Assembly: GCA_023247255.1 (NCBI GenBank)
Contig: JAHFGV010000002.1
Location: forward strand, 33,835-97,834
Source: Candidatus Omnitrophota bacterium
GTDB taxonomy: Bacteria; Omnitrophota; Gorgyraeia; Aquiviventales; Aquiviventaceae
Reading direction: 5' to 3'
DNA: 64,000 bases
Shown: piece by piece, positions 4,384 through 51,962 of the stretch
Layout of the letters: every line of letters begins with the position of its first letter
Numbering within the stretch: the first letter of the stretch is position 1
Made by a program: the position numbers and the translations under genes
Notes under the pieces: generated by a model
Told to the model about the DNA's origin: nothing
Database searches by the model: none
Seen by the model: the letters and a program-made list of their open reading frames with translations, nothing else

Positions 4384-4455
4384 GCTGGCGTAGCTCAATG
4401 GCAGAGCAACGGTTTTGTAAACCGTGGGTTGGAGGTTCAATTCCTCTCGCCAGCT
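4384..4455 (+). tRNA. tRNA-Thr (anticodon TGT)
   Basis: Manual cloverleaf: 7-bp acceptor gctggcg/cgccagc, anticodon loop tttgtaa, T-loop ttcaatt, 72 nt, no encoded CCA. Confidence 0.8.
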
Positions 4456-4650
4456 TATTTCTCGTCTTGCGAGAGGAATTGAAGGGAGCGCCGACTCAGT
4501 TTAAGGGCGCTGCGACGGGCAGGAGCAGCGACATTCCTTTGGAGGCGCGGGTGGCCGACCCGGAGCGAGTCGAAGACGAGCGGAGGGCGCCAATTCCTCT
4601 CGCCAGCTTATTTCTCGTCTTGCGAGAGGAATCGAAGGGAGCCGAGCCTT
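4436..4650 (+). repeat. tRNA-Thr 3'-end duplication module (52-nt direct repeats at 4436-4492 and 4591-4650 flanking a conserved 45-nt motif at 4546-4590)
   Basis: aattcctctcgccagcttatttctcgtcttgcgagaggaat[t/c]gaagggagc occurs twice. The second copy sits 155 nt downstream of the real tRNA 3' end. Confidence 0.7.
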
Positions 4651-4674
4651 CGGTCAATCAAGAGAGCCGAGGGA

Positions 4675-4752
4675 ATTGTCGATTGCCGATTTTCGATTGA
4701 ACGAAGGTTTTTCAATCGACAATCCAAAATCGACAATCGACAATTCCAAGGC
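4675..4752. repeat. palindromic TCGATTGTCGATT-family element
   Basis: ttgtcgattttcgattgaa ... ttcaatcgacaatccaaaatcgacaa inverted arms. Confidence 0.7.
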
Positions 4753-4782
4753 TGTTTCATGATCCCTTAGTCGAGGCGGGTG

Positions 4783-4843
4783 GCCGACCCGGAGCGAGTC
4801 GAAGACGAGCGGAGGGCGCCGATTCCTCTGGCCATCTGAGTTA
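4783..4843 (+). repeat. third copy of conserved 45-nt motif gcgggtggccgacccggagcgagtcgaagacgagcggagggcgcc plus degenerate tRNA-Thr 3' end
   Basis: Near-identical to 4546-4590. Followed by gattcctctggcca, a degenerate form of aattcctctcgccagc. Confidence 0.6.
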
Positions 4844-4915
4844 GCCTCACGAGGAGTTATGGTATGGTAGGAGTTCTTAGATATTCCAGTTCTGTGCGCT
4901 GATTGCTGTTCTTCA

Positions 4916-5001
4916 AGGGCAGGTGCCGGAGTGGCCAATCGGATCAGTCTGTAAAACTGACGGGCTTACCGCCCTACCCAGGTTCGAACCCTGGCCTGCC
5001 C
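4916..5001 (+). tRNA. tRNA-Tyr (anticodon GTA), long variable arm
   Basis: Acceptor gggcagg/cctgccc, anticodon stem tcagt/actga with loop ctgtaaa, type-II variable arm, T-loop ttcgaac, 86 nt. Confidence 0.8.
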
Positions 5002-5180
5002 ATCGTTTTCAAGATATGCTTACATTTTGCCACAGGCCGGTATTTGTGAAGGGAACCCGTTTGTTCCTGCAAGAAGGGGAGGGTTCGAAGGCCGAACGCC
5101 CACCGCGTTCGGCATTCCGCGGCTGCCCCGATGACAGCCGCTGCAGGAGCCGAGCCGTCGATCAATCAAAAGAGCTGAAG

Positions 5181-5250
5181 GAATTGTCGATTTTCGATTG
5201 AATGAAGGTCTTTCAATCGACAATCCAAAATCGACAATTCCAACAGCTTG
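5181..5250. repeat. palindromic TCGATTGTCGATT-family element
   Basis: aattgtcgattttcgattgaatgaagg...ttcaatcgacaatccaaaatcgacaattcc. Confidence 0.7.
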
Positions 5251-5285
5251 TCACTTGTAACTTGCTACTTGTCACTATTCTTAAT

Positions 5286-5356
5286 GCGGGTGTAGCACAG
5301 TGGTAGTGCGCTAGCCTTCCAAGCTAGTCACACGGGTTCGATTCCCGTCACCCGCT
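5286..5356 (+). tRNA. tRNA-Gly (anticodon TCC)
   Basis: Acceptor gcgggtg/cacccgc, anticodon loop cttccaa, T-loop ttcgatt, discriminator U, 71 nt. Confidence 0.8.
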
Positions 5357-30669: not shown

Positions 30670-31014
30670 ATGCACCGATTGGGGAATGCGAAACGGTTTG
30701 TCGTGGTGATGGTTAGCTGTCCTACACTGCTGGTGGCCCGTCGGATAACCAGGCATATTCTCGATCGTCGTTTAGCTGCTTGCGTCAATATCATTCCTGG
30801 GATCGAGTCGAATTTCTGGTGGCAAGGGAAGATCGACCGCTGTCGGGAGCACTTATTGATCATCAAAACTGCAGATAGTCACTTCCAAAAGCTCAAGCAG
30901 GCCATCATTGCCATTCATCCCTATGAAGTACCTGAGGTCCTCGCACTTTCCCTAGCAAGCGGCCATACCCCTTATCTGGAGTGGGTTCTCCAAAACCTCA
31001 TCTCCAGGCCATAA
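30670..31014 (+). CDS. cutA: divalent-cation tolerance protein CutA
   Basis: AACVNIIPGIESNFWWQGKI and HPYEVPE motifs. Confidence 0.8.
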   Translation: MHRLGNAKRFVVVMVSCPTLLVARRITRHILDRRLAACVNIIPGIESNFWWQGKIDRCREHLLIIKTADSHFQKLKQAIIAIHPYEVPEVLALSLASGHTPYLEWVLQNLISRP

Positions 31015-31089
31015 TTCAGGGCTCCACTTGACACAATTAAAATGGCTCAGGCATACTTTATGTAGTTGATATTTAAATATTTACTTACG

Positions 31090-31225
31090 CTTTACATGGT
31101 ACTGGCGAAAGGGCAAATCCACCGTGAGGTGGAGACCCCCGAGAAATTAGCTTCGGGGCCGCGGGTCTGAAATCAGGACAAGACGCGGGCAAAGCTACGG
31201 GTCTCACGAGACTGCCGAGCTGCCG
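31090..31225 (+). ncRNA. candidate c-di-GMP-I (GEMM) riboswitch aptamer
   Basis: GCGAAAGGGCAAATCC plus hairpin CCACC-GTGA-GGTGG (GNRA loop) plus GAC aligns to the Vc2 GEMM 5' half CGCACAGGGCAAACC-AUUCGAAAGAGUGG-GAC. Downstream GACGCGGGCAAAGCTACGGGTC resembles the P3 consensus. Confidence 0.35.
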
Positions 31226-31257
31226 ACCAGAAAAACGGCGCCGATGGAGAATGAGAC

Positions 31258-31287
31258 CGCCGAGCTACCGAACCAGTGGTGAAGGTT
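31258..31287 (+). terminator. intrinsic terminator (possible riboswitch expression platform)
   Basis: ccgaacc-agtggtgaa-ggttcgg 7-bp stem followed by TTTTTTT, 48 nt before the pilX-like ATG. Confidence 0.6.
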
Positions 31288-31335
31288 CGGTTTTTTTATT
31301 TACTATCACCTGTCATTTATCTGAGACCTAACAAG

Positions 31336-31710
31336 ATGGCTTCTGAAATGGTTTCTCACAGATCCCTTCTTCTCTCAGAACGTGGAGCTATCCTCGGATT
31401 AGTGACCGTCATGGCGCTTGCTTGTGCCATTGCGTCCTACACGGTTTTGATGATGGCTGGAAGCGATGTCCGGCAGGGTGGATTCTACGAAGGGCGCACG
31501 GAATCCCGCTATGCTGCGGAAGCAGGTCTGATATGGGCCATGCAGCAGTTGTGGGTGGATCCGTATTGGCAGTCGGCCGCCGGCACTACCGACGTCACAG
31601 TCGATGTCAACGGCAGGCCGGTGAACGTAGACATTATCATGCCCAGTTGTGGGGTGGTAGCGCCGACTCCATGTCCTCCCCGCAGTCTCCAAGCCAAGGT
31701 GGTGTACTAA
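31336..31710 (+). CDS. type IV pilus assembly protein PilX-like (PilX_N domain)
   Basis: SERGAILGLVTVMALACAIASYTVLMMA...AAEAGL matches the PilX N-terminal family. ORF-track start 31276 lies inside the terminator hairpin and is rejected. Confidence 0.7.
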   Translation: MASEMVSHRSLLLSERGAILGLVTVMALACAIASYTVLMMAGSDVRQGGFYEGRTESRYAAEAGLIWAMQQLWVDPYWQSAAGTTDVTVDVNGRPVNVDIIMPSCGVVAPTPCPPRSLQAKVVY

Positions 31711-31712
31711 TA

Positions 31713-31766
31713 CAATACAAACGAATTATCTAACGCGACAGTGCCAGAGGATAATTCGTTTGTATA
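31713..31766. repeat. 54-bp hairpin element atacaaacgaattatctaacgcgac.gtgccagaggataattcgtttgtat
   Basis: 16-bp stem atacaaacgaattatc/gataattcgtttgtat. Second copy at 49147-49199; related hairpin at 1131-1190. Confidence 0.6.
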
Positions 31767-31773
31767 CTAAAAG

Positions 31774-32328
31774 ATGCATTCTGCGAGCGTTTATTCTAAG
31801 ACAGTTATGCGCTCAAGGCTCAAGGCTCAAGGCTCAAGGCTATTTCCTACAGCCTACAGCCTACAGCCTACAGCCAATAGGGATTTTAAAGCATACCCTT
31901 GTGAATCTCGATGGATTTCATTCGTTTCTCAATATGGCTATACGTTTATGGAGGTTTTAACCACTGTCGTCATTCTCTCGGTTTTAATGATGATGGGCCT
32001 GCCTCAGTATCGCAAGGTGATCGAGCGCGGCTACTGGGACAGCGCCCGCGACGTTCTTTTAGCGATTTACGCAGGTGAGCAAACTTATGTGACGGTGAAT
32101 GGCACGTACAAAGGCGGCTTGGGAACGGCAAGCAGCATGACTGACTGGAGGGCAATCTATGTGGACAAACCGGCCGCTGCAGGGGAGCCTGTGGAATACA
32201 GTGTCACCGCGGCGGGACCTCCACCGACATTCACCGCAACGGCCAAGCGTATCGGTGGATCGTTTGACAGCAAGACAATAACGATCGATCAAGACAAGGC
32301 ATGGGGCGGAACATGGGCCAGGCCATGA
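31774..32328 (+). CDS. type IV pilin-like protein (minor pilin)
   Basis: Prepilin cleavage motif G|YTFMEVL with Glu at +5 and a hydrophobic helix. N-terminal extent uncertain; in-frame ATGs at 31774 and 31807 lie upstream of heptamer arrays. Confidence 0.6.
   Translation: MHSASVYSKTVMRSRLKAQGSRLFPTAYSLQPTANRDFKAYPCESRWISFVSQYGYTFMEVLTTVVILSVLMMMGLPQYRKVIERGYWDSARDVLLAIYAGEQTYVTVNGTYKGGLGTASSMTDWRAIYVDKPAAAGEPVEYSVTAAGPPPTFTATAKRIGGSFDSKTITIDQDKAWGGTWARP
31814..31876. repeat. two adjacent heptanucleotide arrays, (caaggct)x4 and (acagcct)x4
   Basis: 31814-31841 and 31849-31876. The core pentamers aggct/agcct are reverse complements, so the arrays can pair as an imperfect hairpin. Confidence 0.75.
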
Positions 32329-32873
32329 GGGGGTACCCGTGGTGTCTATCGTCGATTTTCGATTTTCGATTGTCGATTGAAAGCCATAGCGTTATCGATC
32401 GACGATCCACAATCCACAATCGACAATTCCATAGAGGTATCCGTGGTTTCACCATGATCGAGGTTCTCATCGCCTCAGTCATTGCTTCCATAGTCATCGG
32501 GGGAACGATGACAGCCTTTGTGACGGCAAGCCGGATGACGCGTCAGCAAAGCGGACCGGCCAATTCCGATGCCGCTTTGTATGTCCAGCAGCTTTTGGAG
32601 GCGATTCGCAATCACGTGGCTGCCGACTCGACATGGTTCAGCACAAGGGTCGGGCCGGTTCCCGCTACGTGGGCGGCTTGGCGAAACGATGATCCCCCAT
32701 TGTCGGCGTCCTGTCCCTCGGCATCTATCGTTTGCCGGACAGATGTGAACAATGGGCGGAAATATTTTATCACCTATGTCGACGACACCTGTGATGATGA
32801 CGGCGATACCAGTGATTGTTACTACGCCGTGACCGTGAGGGTCTGTTGGGATGAGCCGGCCTCGTCATGCTAA
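32301..32873 (+). CDS. type IV pilin-like protein (minor pilin, PilV/FimT-like)
   Basis: G|FTMIEVLIASV class III signal motif (Gly -1, Phe +1, Glu +5). No canonical start near the motif; the ORF reads through palindromic element 32345-32430. Confidence 0.6.
   Translation: MGRNMGQAMRGYPWCLSSIFDFRLSIESHSVIDRRSTIHNRQFHRGIRGFTMIEVLIASVIASIVIGGTMTAFVTASRMTRQQSGPANSDAALYVQQLLEAIRNHVAADSTWFSTRVGPVPATWAAWRNDDPPLSASCPSASIVCRTDVNNGRKYFITYVDDTCDDDGDTSDCYYAVTVRVCWDEPASSC
32345..32430. repeat. palindromic TCGATTGTCGATT-family element inside the pilin leader ORF
   Basis: cgattttcgattttcgattgtcgattgaaagccatagcg...cgacgatccacaatccacaatcgacaattcc. Confidence 0.7.
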
Positions 32874-33606
32874 ACAAGCGTATCCTTTTCGATTGTCGAT
32901 TGTCGATTTTCGATTGAAAGCCATAGCATTGCCAATCGACGATCCACAATCGACGATCGACGATTCCATTGTAGGTATGACTCTGATTGAGGTTATGGTC
33001 TCCCTGACGCTGGCGATGATCGTTCTGCTTGCGGTAACCAGCATCGATGTGACGCGGGTGCGGATTCACGAAGAGCTTCGTGATCGCTCAGGAATTGCAA
33101 CGCCGGAGCATGGGGAGGCTTCCTTGGCTGCTCTCTCTATAGAAAAAGACATCGAGCAGGCCGATCGGATCAATATCATTGCGGATGGCATTCAAGTGCG
33201 GATTCCCGATATGACGATCGCAGGATGTACGGGGACTGTTCCTGATGCCAGTTGCTTTGATGCTGCGGCCAACTACCGCTGGGACCAATACCGGCTTGAC
33301 GCTGACCAGCTGCTTTATTACCGCGGCACCCAAGTGGCCTGCCCCACTCCCACAGTGCTGGCTGAACAGATTGCGGATTTATCGTTTCAGTACGTGAATG
33401 AAGCCCCCGCTCCTCCTGGAGGCGATCCGGCAAACCAAGACAACAACCTGCTTGCCTACACGGTGAAATGGGATAACGCAGATGGGCTAAGCCATGAATT
33501 TCAGGGGGTGGTCAGTCTCAGAGCCTCTGCCTACACGGATGTTTCGACAGGGCTTCAGGCTCCCAATGGAACAGACATCAGTCCACCGCCTACGGTATGT
33601 TCGTAG
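32851..33606 (+). CDS. type IV pilin-like protein (minor pilin, PilW-like size)
   Basis: G|MTLIEVMVSLTLAMIVLL motif. The ORF reads through palindromic element 32886-32967. Confidence 0.6.
   Translation: MSRPRHAKQAYPFRLSIVDFRLKAIALPIDDPQSTIDDSIVGMTLIEVMVSLTLAMIVLLAVTSIDVTRVRIHEELRDRSGIATPEHGEASLAALSIEKDIEQADRINIIADGIQVRIPDMTIAGCTGTVPDASCFDAAANYRWDQYRLDADQLLYYRGTQVACPTPTVLAEQIADLSFQYVNEAPAPPGGDPANQDNNLLAYTVKWDNADGLSHEFQGVVSLRASAYTDVSTGLQAPNGTDISPPPTVCS
32886..32967. repeat. palindromic TCGATTGTCGATT-family element
   Basis: cgattgtcgattgtcgattttcgattgaaagccatagc...caatcgacgatccacaatcgacgatcgacgattcc. Confidence 0.7.
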
Positions 33607-34525: not shown

Positions 34526-34543
34526 CCCCGCCCATGGGTGGGG
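34526..34543. promoter_or_regulatory. near-perfect 18-bp palindrome ccccgcccatgggtgggg upstream of fibre gene 1 (candidate operator)
   Basis: Sits 48 nt before the ATG. A perfect copy ccccgcccatgggcgggg lies at 36623-36640 upstream of fibre gene 2. Confidence 0.45.
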
Positions 34544-34590
34544 AGGAGGCGCAGCCTTTTGATGCCAGCAGTATAACACGAGGTGAGGTT

Positions 34591-36198
34591 ATGTTCAATA
34601 CAGGTGTAAGCTTTCCCCGTCGGCGAGCAACCCGCACTGGTTTGCGAGTCACAAGCGACGAGCGACGAGCAACGATACGTGGGGTTTTTGTAACCATTCT
34701 ATATTTCTGTGGTGTGTTCCTCAGCCTTGCGCCTGCGACGGGGGCGGAAGACGTCACGGTGACGACCTACTACCCCTCTCCGCGCGGAGTCTACGATGAG
34801 CTGCGCACAACCGGCGATGTGAGAATTGGGACGACTTCTGCTCCTGCGGCACGGTTGCACGTGGTCCAGACAAACGCACAAAACGCCTTTCGGGTCGATG
34901 ATGCGAATCCAGATACGACCCCATTCGTCATCGATCAGAATGGCAATGTCGGGATCAAGACGGCAAGCCCTCTGGCTGATCTCCATGTACGAGATGACGC
35001 CGATATAGTAAATCTTCGTGTCACATCGGACAATGAGCGAGCCGGAATTTCTTTATTGTCAGACAATACCGGTGAAGTATTAATCTATACCGAAGACGGA
35101 TCAGATGATTTGCGCTTTCAGGTTGGTGGTACAGATCGTATGACTATTGAAAGTGCCGCTGCTGAGACAAGCATTACGGGTGAGCTAGGGATAGGGACGG
35201 CGAATCCAGAGAGTCCCTTACACATTGTCACTCCAGCTGGGTCCGGTATAAATGAAGTACGTCTTGAAGAGACAGGTGGATCTACCCTGAGTCTGAGCGC
35301 TGGAGGTGGAGTGACCAGGATTGCCTCTAGCGATAATCTACAGATAGAAGCTCCAGGAGGAACCACTCGTATGATCGTGTTGGGCACAGGCAATGTTGGT
35401 ATAGGCGCAGGGAACCCATTGTCCCGTCTCAGCGTAGGAGCTGATGGGTTCGCGGCAACGGCTATTTATGGAGAAAGTGGAGGAGCAGGATCGGGTGTGG
35501 CTGGAAAGGGGGGTGGAAGGGGAGTGGAAGGATGGGCGAGCCTAGGAGCGGGAGCTGTTGCGGGCGTAGCTGGTACTACCATCGATCCAGCGACAATTCC
35601 TGGGGGAGAAATTCCGAATGGTGCGGGTGTATTTGGTTATGGACATACCTATGGAATCCGGGCCGTAGCGACGGACGCCGGGGGCACAGGGGTTTATGGA
35701 AAAGGGCCGGCTTGGGCAGGGGATTTTATAGGCGATGTGCGTGTATCCGATGACCTCTTTGTTGGTAATGATGTAGATGTTCAGGGGGATATTTCGGTAA
35801 CGGGGAACATCACAGGCGATGTTTCAGAACATGTGGATTGTTCAGGGTGTGAAGCGACCGATGTGGTGGTGATCGATCCTGACCACGACCAGCGCCTGCG
35901 CCCATCCAGCAAGGCCTATGACTCGACGGTGGCCGGCGTGATTTCAGAGAAACCGTCTCTAAAGATCGGCGGCAGCCAATCCGAGATCGCCAAGCCCTTG
36001 GCGCTTGCCGGGCTGGTTCGTGTGAAAGCGACGACGGAAAACGGGCCGATTCATCGGGGGGATCTACTCGTGACTTCATCAAAGCCTGGGCATGCCATGC
36101 GGGCCGATCCTGATGCGATCAAACCAGGGATGCTGCTGGGCAAGGCGCTGGAGCCTCTTTCCGAAGGCGATGGGGCGATAGTGATCTTGGTGGAATGA
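34591..36198 (+). CDS. secreted fibre-like repeat protein, paralog 1 (tail-fibre-like NGNVGIGT repeats, Gly-rich core, conserved C-terminal module)
   Basis: Strong RBS gaggtgagg. Signal-anchor VFVTILYFCGVFLSLAPATGA. Repeats of the type L.VV.....AFRVDD..PDTTPFVIDQNGNVGI. C-terminal 115 aa are ~85% identical to paralog 2. Confidence 0.75.
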   Translation: MFNTGVSFPRRRATRTGLRVTSDERRATIRGVFVTILYFCGVFLSLAPATGAEDVTVTTYYPSPRGVYDELRTTGDVRIGTTSAPAARLHVVQTNAQNAFRVDDANPDTTPFVIDQNGNVGIKTASPLADLHVRDDADIVNLRVTSDNERAGISLLSDNTGEVLIYTEDGSDDLRFQVGGTDRMTIESAAAETSITGELGIGTANPESPLHIVTPAGSGINEVRLEETGGSTLSLSAGGGVTRIASSDNLQIEAPGGTTRMIVLGTGNVGIGAGNPLSRLSVGADGFAATAIYGESGGAGSGVAGKGGGRGVEGWASLGAGAVAGVAGTTIDPATIPGGEIPNGAGVFGYGHTYGIRAVATDAGGTGVYGKGPAWAGDFIGDVRVSDDLFVGNDVDVQGDISVTGNITGDVSEHVDCSGCEATDVVVIDPDHDQRLRPSSKAYDSTVAGVISEKPSLKIGGSQSEIAKPLALAGLVRVKATTENGPIHRGDLLVTSSKPGHAMRADPDAIKPGMLLGKALEPLSEGDGAIVILVE

Positions 36199-51889: not shown

Positions 51890-51962
51890 GGGGCAGTAGC
51901 TCAGTTGGGAGAGCGCGACATTCGCATTGTCGAGGCCAGGGGTTCGATCCCCCTCTGCTCCA
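51890..51962 (+). tRNA. tRNA-Ala (anticodon CGC)
   Basis: Acceptor ggggcag/ctgctcc with the G3:U70 Ala identity pair, anticodon loop ttcgcat, T-loop ttcgatc, 73 nt. Confidence 0.8.

Follow-up and report, generated by a model that had tools for sequence, protein, structure and literature searches.

A predicted c-di-GMP-I riboswitch with two inserted hairpins and a duplicated 3' strand ahead of a minor-pilin operon in an Omnitrophota bacterium

The stretch of DNA analysed here (the window) comprises 64,000 nucleotides (nt) from a Candidatus Omnitrophota bacterium (GenBank assembly GCA_023247255.1, contig JAHFGV010000002.1, positions 33,835 to 97,834). On its plus strand, between cutA (30670-31014) and a minor-pilin operon, lies a leader that the original prediction picked out as a candidate c-di-GMP-I (GEMM-I) riboswitch of variant architecture, followed by a terminator and heading the operon. 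That proposal is borne out by an independently built covariance model, by covariation among relatives and by a conserved promoter. Judged from its sequence, the segment 31102-31230 is a c-di-GMP-I aptamer and a genuine member of the class, belonging to a subtype with two extra hairpins and a duplicated 3' strand; cyclic di-GMP (c-di-GMP) is the probable ligand of the complete element, 31102-31297. All of the sequence features originally quoted were found on the plus strand, with sub-coordinates displaced by 3-12 nt, while the second copy of the 3' strand (31253-31277) had not been noticed. The parts of the element are as follows (bp, base pairs; numbering of single bases after Vc2).

31102-31107, plus strand: P1 5' strand, CUGGCG (sequence reading, duplex energies, constrained folds)
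31108-31117, plus strand: junction, AAAG then GGCAAA, with the G20 equivalent (ligand contact) at G31112, the G21-C22 equivalents (5' half of the 2-bp clamp) at 31113-14 and the AAA side of the internal loop at 31115-31117 (variant-model alignment)
31118-31133, plus strand: P1a hairpin, UCCACC-GUGA-GGUGGA, 6-bp stem and GNRA tetraloop (covariation; 2007 GEMM description)
31134-31136, plus strand: GAC, the G42-A43-C44 equivalents, 3' side of the internal loop (alignment)
31137-31158, plus strand: hairpin X, CCCCGAG-AAAUUAGC-UUCGGGG, beginning directly after C44 (fold, covariation, shuffle control)
31159-31188, plus strand: hairpin Y, CCGCG...CGCGG with an inner GUCU/AGGAC stem, abutting X and stopping directly before G45 (fold, covariation, shuffle control)
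31189-31204, plus strand: GCAAAGC junction (31189-31195) and P2 5' strand S2, AGCU-A-CGG-GUCU (31193-31204), with the G45-C46 equivalents (3' half of the clamp) at G31189-C31190 and the A47 equivalent (ligand contact) at A31191 (alignment; P2 pairs)
31208-31230, plus strand: T1, proximal copy of the 3' strand, GAGAC-UG-CCG-AGCU-GC-CG-A-CCAG (direct repeat, duplex energy, model alignment)
31231-31252, plus strand: linker with CGGCGCCG (31236-31243), a role predicted from minimum-free-energy folds of growing transcripts
31253-31277, plus strand: T2, distal copy of the 3' strand, GAGAC-CG-CCG-AGCU-AC-CG-AA-CCAGU (direct repeat, duplex energy, consensus match)
31214 (T1) and 31259 (T2), plus strand: G83 equivalents, interhelical pair with C44 (alignment)
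31223 (T1) and 31268 (T2), plus strand: C92 equivalents, ligand contact (alignment)
31267-31297, plus strand: intrinsic terminator, ACCGAACC / GGUUCGGU, 8-bp stem, 9-nt loop and U7 tract at 31291-31297 (sequence, folds)

In c-di-GMP-I aptamers G20, A47 and C92 contact the ligand, and C44 and G83 form a universally conserved interhelical Watson-Crick pair (PMC4744006) that is essential for binding, which the G83C change abolishes (PMC11705072). The window carries the expected base at every one of these ligand-contact and tertiary-contact positions (G20, A47, C92, C44 and G83), with C31136 as the C44 equivalent, whose partner would be the bulged G of the 3' strand; for C44-G83 the agreement is one of base identity. 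The clamp and internal loop are also present, the deviation being a 52-nt insert (31137-31188) on the 3' side of a 3-nt loop that the original GEMM description called highly conserved (PMC1950547). The P1 5' strand can pair either with the tail of T1 (6 bp, CUGG-CG / CG-A-CCAG) or with that of T2 (8 bp, extended to 31100). As for the earlier placement of these parts, the 5' half of a Vc2-like aptamer is indeed there, as GCGAAAGGGCAAATCCACCGTGAGGTGGAGAC (GCGAAAGGGCAAAUCCACCGUGAGGUGGAGAC), but at 31105-31136 and not at 31094-31128. The P3-side region GACGCGGGCAAAGCTACGGGTC likewise exists, at 31182-31203 instead of 31176-31200, and the GAC that had been matched to it at ~31182 belongs to an inserted hairpin, the true GAC being 31134-31136.

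Rfam recognises this element poorly. At gathering thresholds the window yields four tRNAs and no GEMM call. With permissive filters a GEMM-clan match emerges at 31104-31228 (RF03167, 30.2 bits, E = 3e-5 locally), and it is the sole non-tRNA match with E < 1 when all 4,227 families are run against both strands of the 64 kb (E = 0.004), a likeness to GEMM well above the chance level though formally sub-threshold. This score falls short of the 59 bits at which membership of RF03167 is assigned; RF01051 scores lower still and does not reach its own threshold of 35 bits, and c-di-GMP-II (RF01786) has no match at E up to 10 in 30950-31400. In cyclic GMP-AMP (c-GAMP) riboswitches (GEMM-Ib), A replaces G at position 20 (cf. 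PMC6140456); the window has G31112. A covariance model of the variant, for which 22 relatives but not the window were used, gave 86.7 bits (E ~5e-23, span 31100-31233), and the element was its single match in 64 kb. Among genome relatives of the same layout, 11 of 20 pass the RF01051 threshold (35.2-48.4 bits) and nine fall below it, and for this reason we take the insert-bearing architecture to be a GEMM-I subtype, predicted from sequence, that Rfam detects in part only. The insert architecture is not represented in the Rfam consensus: the RF01051 model pushes the insert of such relatives into the terminal loop of P1a and mispairs the stem. The window itself is most probably sub-threshold because its insert sits in the normally invariant AAA/GAC internal loop. 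The sub-threshold RF03167 alignment from Infernal pairs the 3' strand with AGCUUCGGGGC (31149-59) in hairpin X, using non-canonical pairs and a long insertion in the P2 loop. We rejected it as an artefact, as relatives show 31137-58 to be an independent hairpin and GCAAAGC-UACGGGUC (31189-31203) to be the true junction and P2 strand; the 3' strand of hairpin X resembles the P2 5' strand in the window only, and the inserts of relatives show no such likeness.

Relatives were sought through the architecture itself because the first downstream protein (124 residues) is nearly an orphan, with one 98%-identical homologue cluster, and the other contigs carrying it are 100% identical in the leader. 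The search pattern (GGCAAA, a 6-bp stem with a GNRA loop, GAC, 25-55 nt, then GCAAAGCNNCGG) found 42 loci in a set of one genome per GTDB species, against ~4 expected by chance on our own estimate, and about 25 of the 42 also have a complete GEMM-I 3' strand. Most come from metagenome-assembled genomes of Planctomycetota and Omnitrophota, with single ones from Patescibacteria, Clostridia and Ratteibacteria. In metagenomes the pattern found at least 80 loci and the covariance model 68 hits among the matches listed. After removal of duplicates the family set holds 68 distinct insert-bearing elements, including metagenome loci among the matches listed; 50 have a single 3' strand and 18 have two copies of it (dual loci). 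Some metagenome contigs (L100 1643-3804, L065 6574-6876, L068, L120, L122 and L062) hold 2-4 GEMM-I elements within ~2 kb and mix insert-less copies (83-100 nt) with insert-bearing ones, both forms being found in one genome neighbourhood.

The aptamer core is maintained across this family. P1a shows compensatory changes at 6/6 pairs in the 22-relative alignment and also in 61 distinct metagenome sequences, and in P2, which is 95% paired, such changes affect 4/11 and 8/11 pairs in the two sets, respectively. The clamp reads GC/CG in 22/22 and 61/61 sequences, though this was set by the search pattern. The pattern left the G83 and C92 equivalents free: the former, the second base of the bulge, is G in 50/50 single-strand copies, 18/18 T1 and 18/18 T2, and the latter is C in 49/50 single-strand relatives. 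P1 was 41-43% paired in a fixed-column test, its register varying across the family; compensatory examples were seen by eye in single sequences (GGAA/UUCC in L008, AAUC/GAUU in L057).

The insert had originally been described as an extra hairpin of ~45 nt. The variant architecture stands, but the insert is 52 nt long and folds into two abutting hairpins, X and Y, placed between the C44 and G45 equivalents, two nucleotides from A47. All 23 two-hairpin inserts that were folded share this arrangement, beginning after GAC and ending before GCAAAGC, and two further relatives have a single hairpin only. Insert length ranges from 25 to 65 nt in relatives, and the sequences of X and Y are unrelated from locus to locus. 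Plain MAFFT was unable to align the hairpins; hence, a structure-anchored alignment of the 22 relatives was made, again excluding the window, in which real basal bases were kept and apical parts trimmed. In it, 94.1% of cells are paired versus 72.9% in shuffles, none of 500 shuffles reaching the observed values, and sliding the partners lowers pairing to 29-48%. Compensatory changes occur at 5/5 basal pairs of X and 5/5 of Y. As the boundaries of X and Y were taken from each sequence's own fold, dinucleotide shuffles were put through the identical procedure as a control; at least nine of ten basal pairs formed in 23/23 real inserts versus 0.9% of shuffles. The 61 metagenome sequences gave an independent replicate (X 100% and Y 97.5% paired, five of five compensatory pairs each), such that basal pairing across both sets is 99-100% for X and 97.5-100% for Y. 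Thus, while the element scores below threshold in cmsearch, covariation is very strong. By their position, X and Y would turn the three-way junction into a five-helix junction.

The second departure from the classical layout is the duplicated 3' strand. T1 comes straight after the P2 5' strand and T2 lies 45 nt beyond T1; either copy can form the P2 duplex with S2 (-14.3 kcal/mol for T1, -14.5 kcal/mol for T2). In the 18 dual loci the copies are usually 32-45 nt apart, and T2 follows changes in the P2 5' strand (AUCUC with GAGAU in L008; AACUU with AAGUU and GAGUU in L013). T2 keeps the consensus of the single-strand family and T1 deviates from it, as the following frequencies show (single-strand copies, n = 50; T2, n = 18; T1, n = 18).

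AG bulge: single-strand 74%; T2 78%; T1 33%
Closing U: single-strand 92%; T2 94%; T1 56%
Canonical RC junction: single-strand 94%; T2 78%; T1 50%
CGAA after the junction: single-strand 58%; T2 78%; T1 22%

A strong terminator was correctly foreseen, but its stem is formed by 31267-31274 and 31284-31291, with U7 at 31291-31297, and does not occupy 31258-31287; a consensus terminator scanner missed it in the window, probably owing to its 9-nt loop, which exceeds the scanner's 8-nt limit. Its 5' arm is the tail of T2. The terminator 5' arm overlaps the aptamer 3' strand in 25/35 single-strand and 16/17 dual loci, in the latter always through T2, and a matching T-plus-terminator module occurs in L003, L111 and L038. 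In L008 the duplicated unit takes in the apical part of P2 (AUCUCCAAGAGAU and, 37 nt later, AUUCUCCAAGAGAU), which suggests a tandem duplication, spanning the P2 tip and the 3' strand, as the origin of the second copy. Eleven loci from various phyla (L005, L013, L014, L021, L033, L040, L045, L067, L076, L110 and L120) have a T1 with a conserved non-canonical junction and tail, GCGCACCGAYAACG; its closing pair is A.G, its junction has 3 nt and it pairs poorly in P1. This form of T1 is too conserved for a mere pairing decoy.

Both peculiarities could be read as signs of altered specificity, the insert or the alternative T1 and T2 pockets serving another cyclic or linear dinucleotide, or two ligands. 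The insert does lie between C44 and G45 and close to A47, the GCGCACCGAYAACG junction recurs in loci that include Planctomycetia, Clostridia and Omnitrophota genomes, and the best Rfam match is formally to a variant family, RF03167. That match is the artefact described above, however, and in the family-supported alignment positions 20, 47 and 92 are G, A and C, the c-di-GMP triad; the gene context, too, is classic for c-di-GMP. We therefore consider a change of ligand very unlikely, the contact bases being canonical and the purifying pattern strong.

A predicted promoter separates the element from cutA. It was located by a consensus scan (10/12 matches) and by its conservation in relatives, and the features concerned are given here.

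31027-31058, plus strand: promoter, CTTGACA-N16-TCAGGCATACTT, sigma-70-like, with -35 TTGACA at 31028-31033, an 18-nt spacer and -10 CATACT at 31052-31057
L003 1394-1423; L111 867-896 and 3064-3093; L038 7409-7438(-) and 4473-4502(-); L088 1689-1718(-): promoter-like blocks in relatives

The block stands upstream of the element in L003, L111, L038 and L088, with the -10 half alone in L023, and its exact 11-mer occurs once in 64 kb. Because this conserved promoter lies between the cutA stop and the aptamer, the leader appears to have its own transcription start, and the terminator is probably not simply that of cutA. The assignment of the terminator to cutA, which we had tried as a candidate, was rejected on the same ground, and the original proviso that transcription might not start upstream of the element is contradicted by the predicted promoter. 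The promoter-like block also recurs inside the downstream operons of L038 and L111, and the genomes that carry it are distantly related; it may be recognised by a sigma factor or regulator devoted to pilus-like operons.

These data bear on whether the leader is a sensor at all. Alternatively, a constitutive terminator or attenuator could follow a structured leader or a relic aptamer, which might bind a protein, or the region might be no more than the cutA terminator. Scores below the Rfam thresholds and a ligand-free ground state that is terminated would fit such a leader, and some GEMM-I elements, such as Bc1, are unresponsive to c-di-GMP (PMC11218506). Set against this are the dedicated conserved promoter between cutA and the element, the overlap of terminator and aptamer strand that is expected of a switch, and the conservation of aptamer helices and contact residues, with compensatory changes, in 68 non-redundant sequences from several phyla. 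With canonical contact bases and so strong a purifying pattern, an inert leader seems scarcely probable at all.

On balance, it seems more probable that c-di-GMP turns expression on by keeping T2 within the aptamer (an ON switch), with T1 serving as a decoy. The riboswitch (31102-31297) would be transcribed from its own promoter and would control read-through into the minor-pilin operon by intrinsic termination. Without c-di-GMP, T1 would hold the P2 5' strand and leave T2 free, the terminator would form and transcription would stop; with c-di-GMP, the T2-closed aptamer with its 8-bp P1 would be stabilised, the terminator 5' arm sequestered and the pilin genes transcribed. The ON direction is suggested by the overlap of the terminator 5' arm with the aptamer 3' strand, an arrangement read as ligand-induced expression by Weinberg et al. 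2007 (PMC1950547). The energetics are consistent with such a switch. In the window the T1 aptamer with the terminator (-67.3 kcal/mol) and the T2 aptamer without it (-64.4 kcal/mol) are near balance, so that ligand binding, which for Vc2 was worth ~-9 kcal/mol by isothermal titration calorimetry (PMC11705072), could flip the equilibrium. The ligand-free full-length minimum-free-energy fold contains the terminator in 16/16 dual loci. That ligand turns the switch ON and that T1 is a decoy are what we infer from these features, and ligand binding and termination are themselves predictions.

Several points weigh against this interpretation. The window lies below every Rfam gathering score. The retrieval pattern demanded G20, A47, C44 and the GNRA loop, whose conservation in the family is therefore no independent evidence. 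A 52-nt insert beside the pocket might affect affinity or specificity. T1 of the window is canonical at every scorable position and is transcribed first, so that c-di-GMP could fix the T1 aptamer, with T2 left to terminate, giving an OFF switch. Refolding from T1 to T2 faces barriers of 10-13 kcal/mol, slow on the time scale of transcription, in findpath estimates that are rough and too crude to settle ON versus OFF. In the close relative L111, moreover, it is T2 that has an A.C closing pair and T1 that is canonical.

An OFF switch would work with the same parts: c-di-GMP would lock the T1 aptamer as it is transcribed, leaving T2 free and allowing the terminator to form, whereas without ligand T2, with its 8-bp against 6-bp P1, would displace T1, sequester the terminator 5' arm and permit read-through. 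T1 has the features needed for this in the window, L003 and L111 (closing A-U, GC junction, C92 and G83 equivalents and a P1 of 6-7 bp), would have the longer window for binding ligand, and retains the G83-equivalent base in every dual locus. As long as the terminator 3' arm is still to be transcribed, folding in the window favours the T2 conformer over the T1 conformer by 5.3 kcal/mol, and in 9/16 dual loci the T2 conformer is the minimum-free-energy fold; in folds of growing transcripts, the T1 tail and the P1 5' strand are possible partners of the linker segment CGGCGCCG. Against these points, the T1 of most dual loci lacks P1 or has a non-canonical junction (GCGCAC, UAU) and makes no complete aptamer, and T2 retains consensus bases that are unpaired and would be superfluous in a mere anti-terminator. 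The matching module in single-strand relatives such as L038 is workable only as an ON switch, and the ligand-free full-length fold is terminated throughout the dual loci. Taken together, we regard an OFF switch as rather unlikely and keep to the ON switch with T1 as decoy.

A more speculative possibility, to which we give low probability, is that insert-bearing GEMM-I elements form a distinct five-helix-junction class in which, for about a quarter of members, two mutually exclusive aptamer folds (both with G83 and C92 equivalents) act oppositely on the terminator and create a three-state switch. Such a switch could, for example, give a band-pass response to c-di-GMP, or be a two-ligand switch should the GCGCACCGAYAACG T1 junction form a pocket of different specificity.

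The genes that the ON switch would control are consistent with a pilus function.

31336-31710, plus strand: first regulated gene as predicted, small membrane protein of 124 residues with a PilX-like hydrophobic N-terminus (open reading frame, ATG at 31336)
31948-32328, 32325-32873 and 32851-33606, plus strand: three prepilin-type genes (Pfam N_methyl and ComP_DUS, gene calls on the identical contig L001, motif scan)

The 124-residue protein has no Pfam match. The prepilin processing motifs of the three following genes are, in order, GYTFMEV, GFTMIEV and GMTLIEV. L003 is syntenic with the window and encodes a pilin-like protein 38% identical to that found here, and prepilin processing motifs near elements number 12 downstream versus one upstream, clustering in the window, L003, L023 and L042. 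Other first genes encode PilM (L005, L038), an AAA_22 ATPase (L018), a DUF7305 protein (L023), a C25 peptidase (L021), a PKD/glycosidase surface protein (L025) and a beta-helix protein (L008). Pili, secretion and surface proteins are the long-known gene theme of GEMM (PMC1950547), and the context thus supports reading the element as a c-di-GMP riboswitch. The pilus context that had been put forward at the outset therefore fits, with prepilin genes downstream here and pilins, PilM and secreted or surface proteins in relatives.

Further features were seen in and around the operon. The second and third prepilin genes are each closely preceded by an 81-nt element (32352-32432 and 32889-32969; 88% identity between the two), in which TCGATTN heptamers, repeated on either side of a central AAAGCCATAGC loop, make up a long imperfect palindrome. 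Such elements might act as intercistronic RNA hairpins or as arrays for protein binding. The stop codon of the first gene is directly followed by ATACAAACGAATTATC, a 16-nt inverted repeat without mismatches (31715-31730 / 31750-31765), and four tandem GCTCAAG units (31811-31838) precede the first prepilin gene. After the pilin genes, both the window (34534-36198) and L003 (fourth downstream open reading frame, 384 residues) encode a large protein without a Pfam match that has a conserved N-terminal TTYYPSPRGVY(D/E)(E/D)LR motif and may be an uncharacterised conserved component of a pilus-like locus. Elsewhere in the window, the four tRNA genes lie at 4384-5356 and 51890-51962, three of them clustering within 1 kb at 4384-5356.

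Overall, we predict that the element in the window is a real riboswitch, one that adds a new structural variant to an established class. Given that Rfam misses it and nine of 20 relatives, the annotation of Planctomycetota, Omnitrophota and related uncultured lineages probably lacks part of their c-di-GMP regulons. Through the element, c-di-GMP sensing would be coupled directly to operons for pili and surface proteins, in organisms whose signalling has hardly been studied. An aptamer thought to be tightly constrained appears to tolerate, and conserve, a two-helix domain two nucleotides from a ligand-contacting base, making it a natural test case for how junction topology relates to ligand binding. 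If the duplicated 3' strand is a decoy or a second aptamer register, it would show how riboswitch logic could become tighter or more complex by a simple evolutionary step.

Neither the two-hairpin domain that separates C44 from G45 nor the doubling of the 3' strand is described in the literature searched, though subscription papers or supplementary alignments might mention them. Compared with Vc2 and RF01051, the window has a candidate P1 and the same G20, 2-bp GC clamp, AAA/GAC loop, 6-bp P1a with GNRA tetraloop, GC-AAA-GC junction with A47, P2 with its bulged A and NG bulge (G83), and RC junction with C92. It shares with RF01051 the 5' position upstream of pilus genes and the terminator overlapping the aptamer 3' strand, and its family differs in having the two hairpins (25-65 nt; 52 nt here) and, in 18/68 members, a doubled 3' strand. 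The c-di-GMP-I-GGC family (RF03167) belongs to the same clan (CL00126) and is the top-scoring Rfam family for the window, but the window has A, not G, at the A47 position in the family-supported alignment; we take the "GGC" of its name to denote positions 20, 47 and 92. The c-GAMP riboswitch of Geobacter pilM is an example of a GEMM-I ON switch with a terminator overlapping P2, from which the window differs in having G20 rather than A20, predicting c-di-GMP and not c-GAMP as ligand. GEMM-I was already known to be common in Planctomycetes, tied to pilus genes and endowed with terminator-overlap logic (PMC1950547). The ON switches proposed by Weinberg et al. 2007 resemble the window in that the terminator 5' arm is the aptamer 3' strand, in that ligand is predicted to prevent termination and in their type IV pilus genes; the window adds the proximal strand T1, which competes for the same 5' strands. 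Finally, Bc1 of Bacillus thuringiensis, also a GEMM-I element with a duplicated element in its expression platform, has a long dual-terminator platform and complex or ambiguous ligand responses (PMC11218506), but whereas Bc1 doubles the terminator, the window doubles the aptamer 3' strand and keeps a single terminator.

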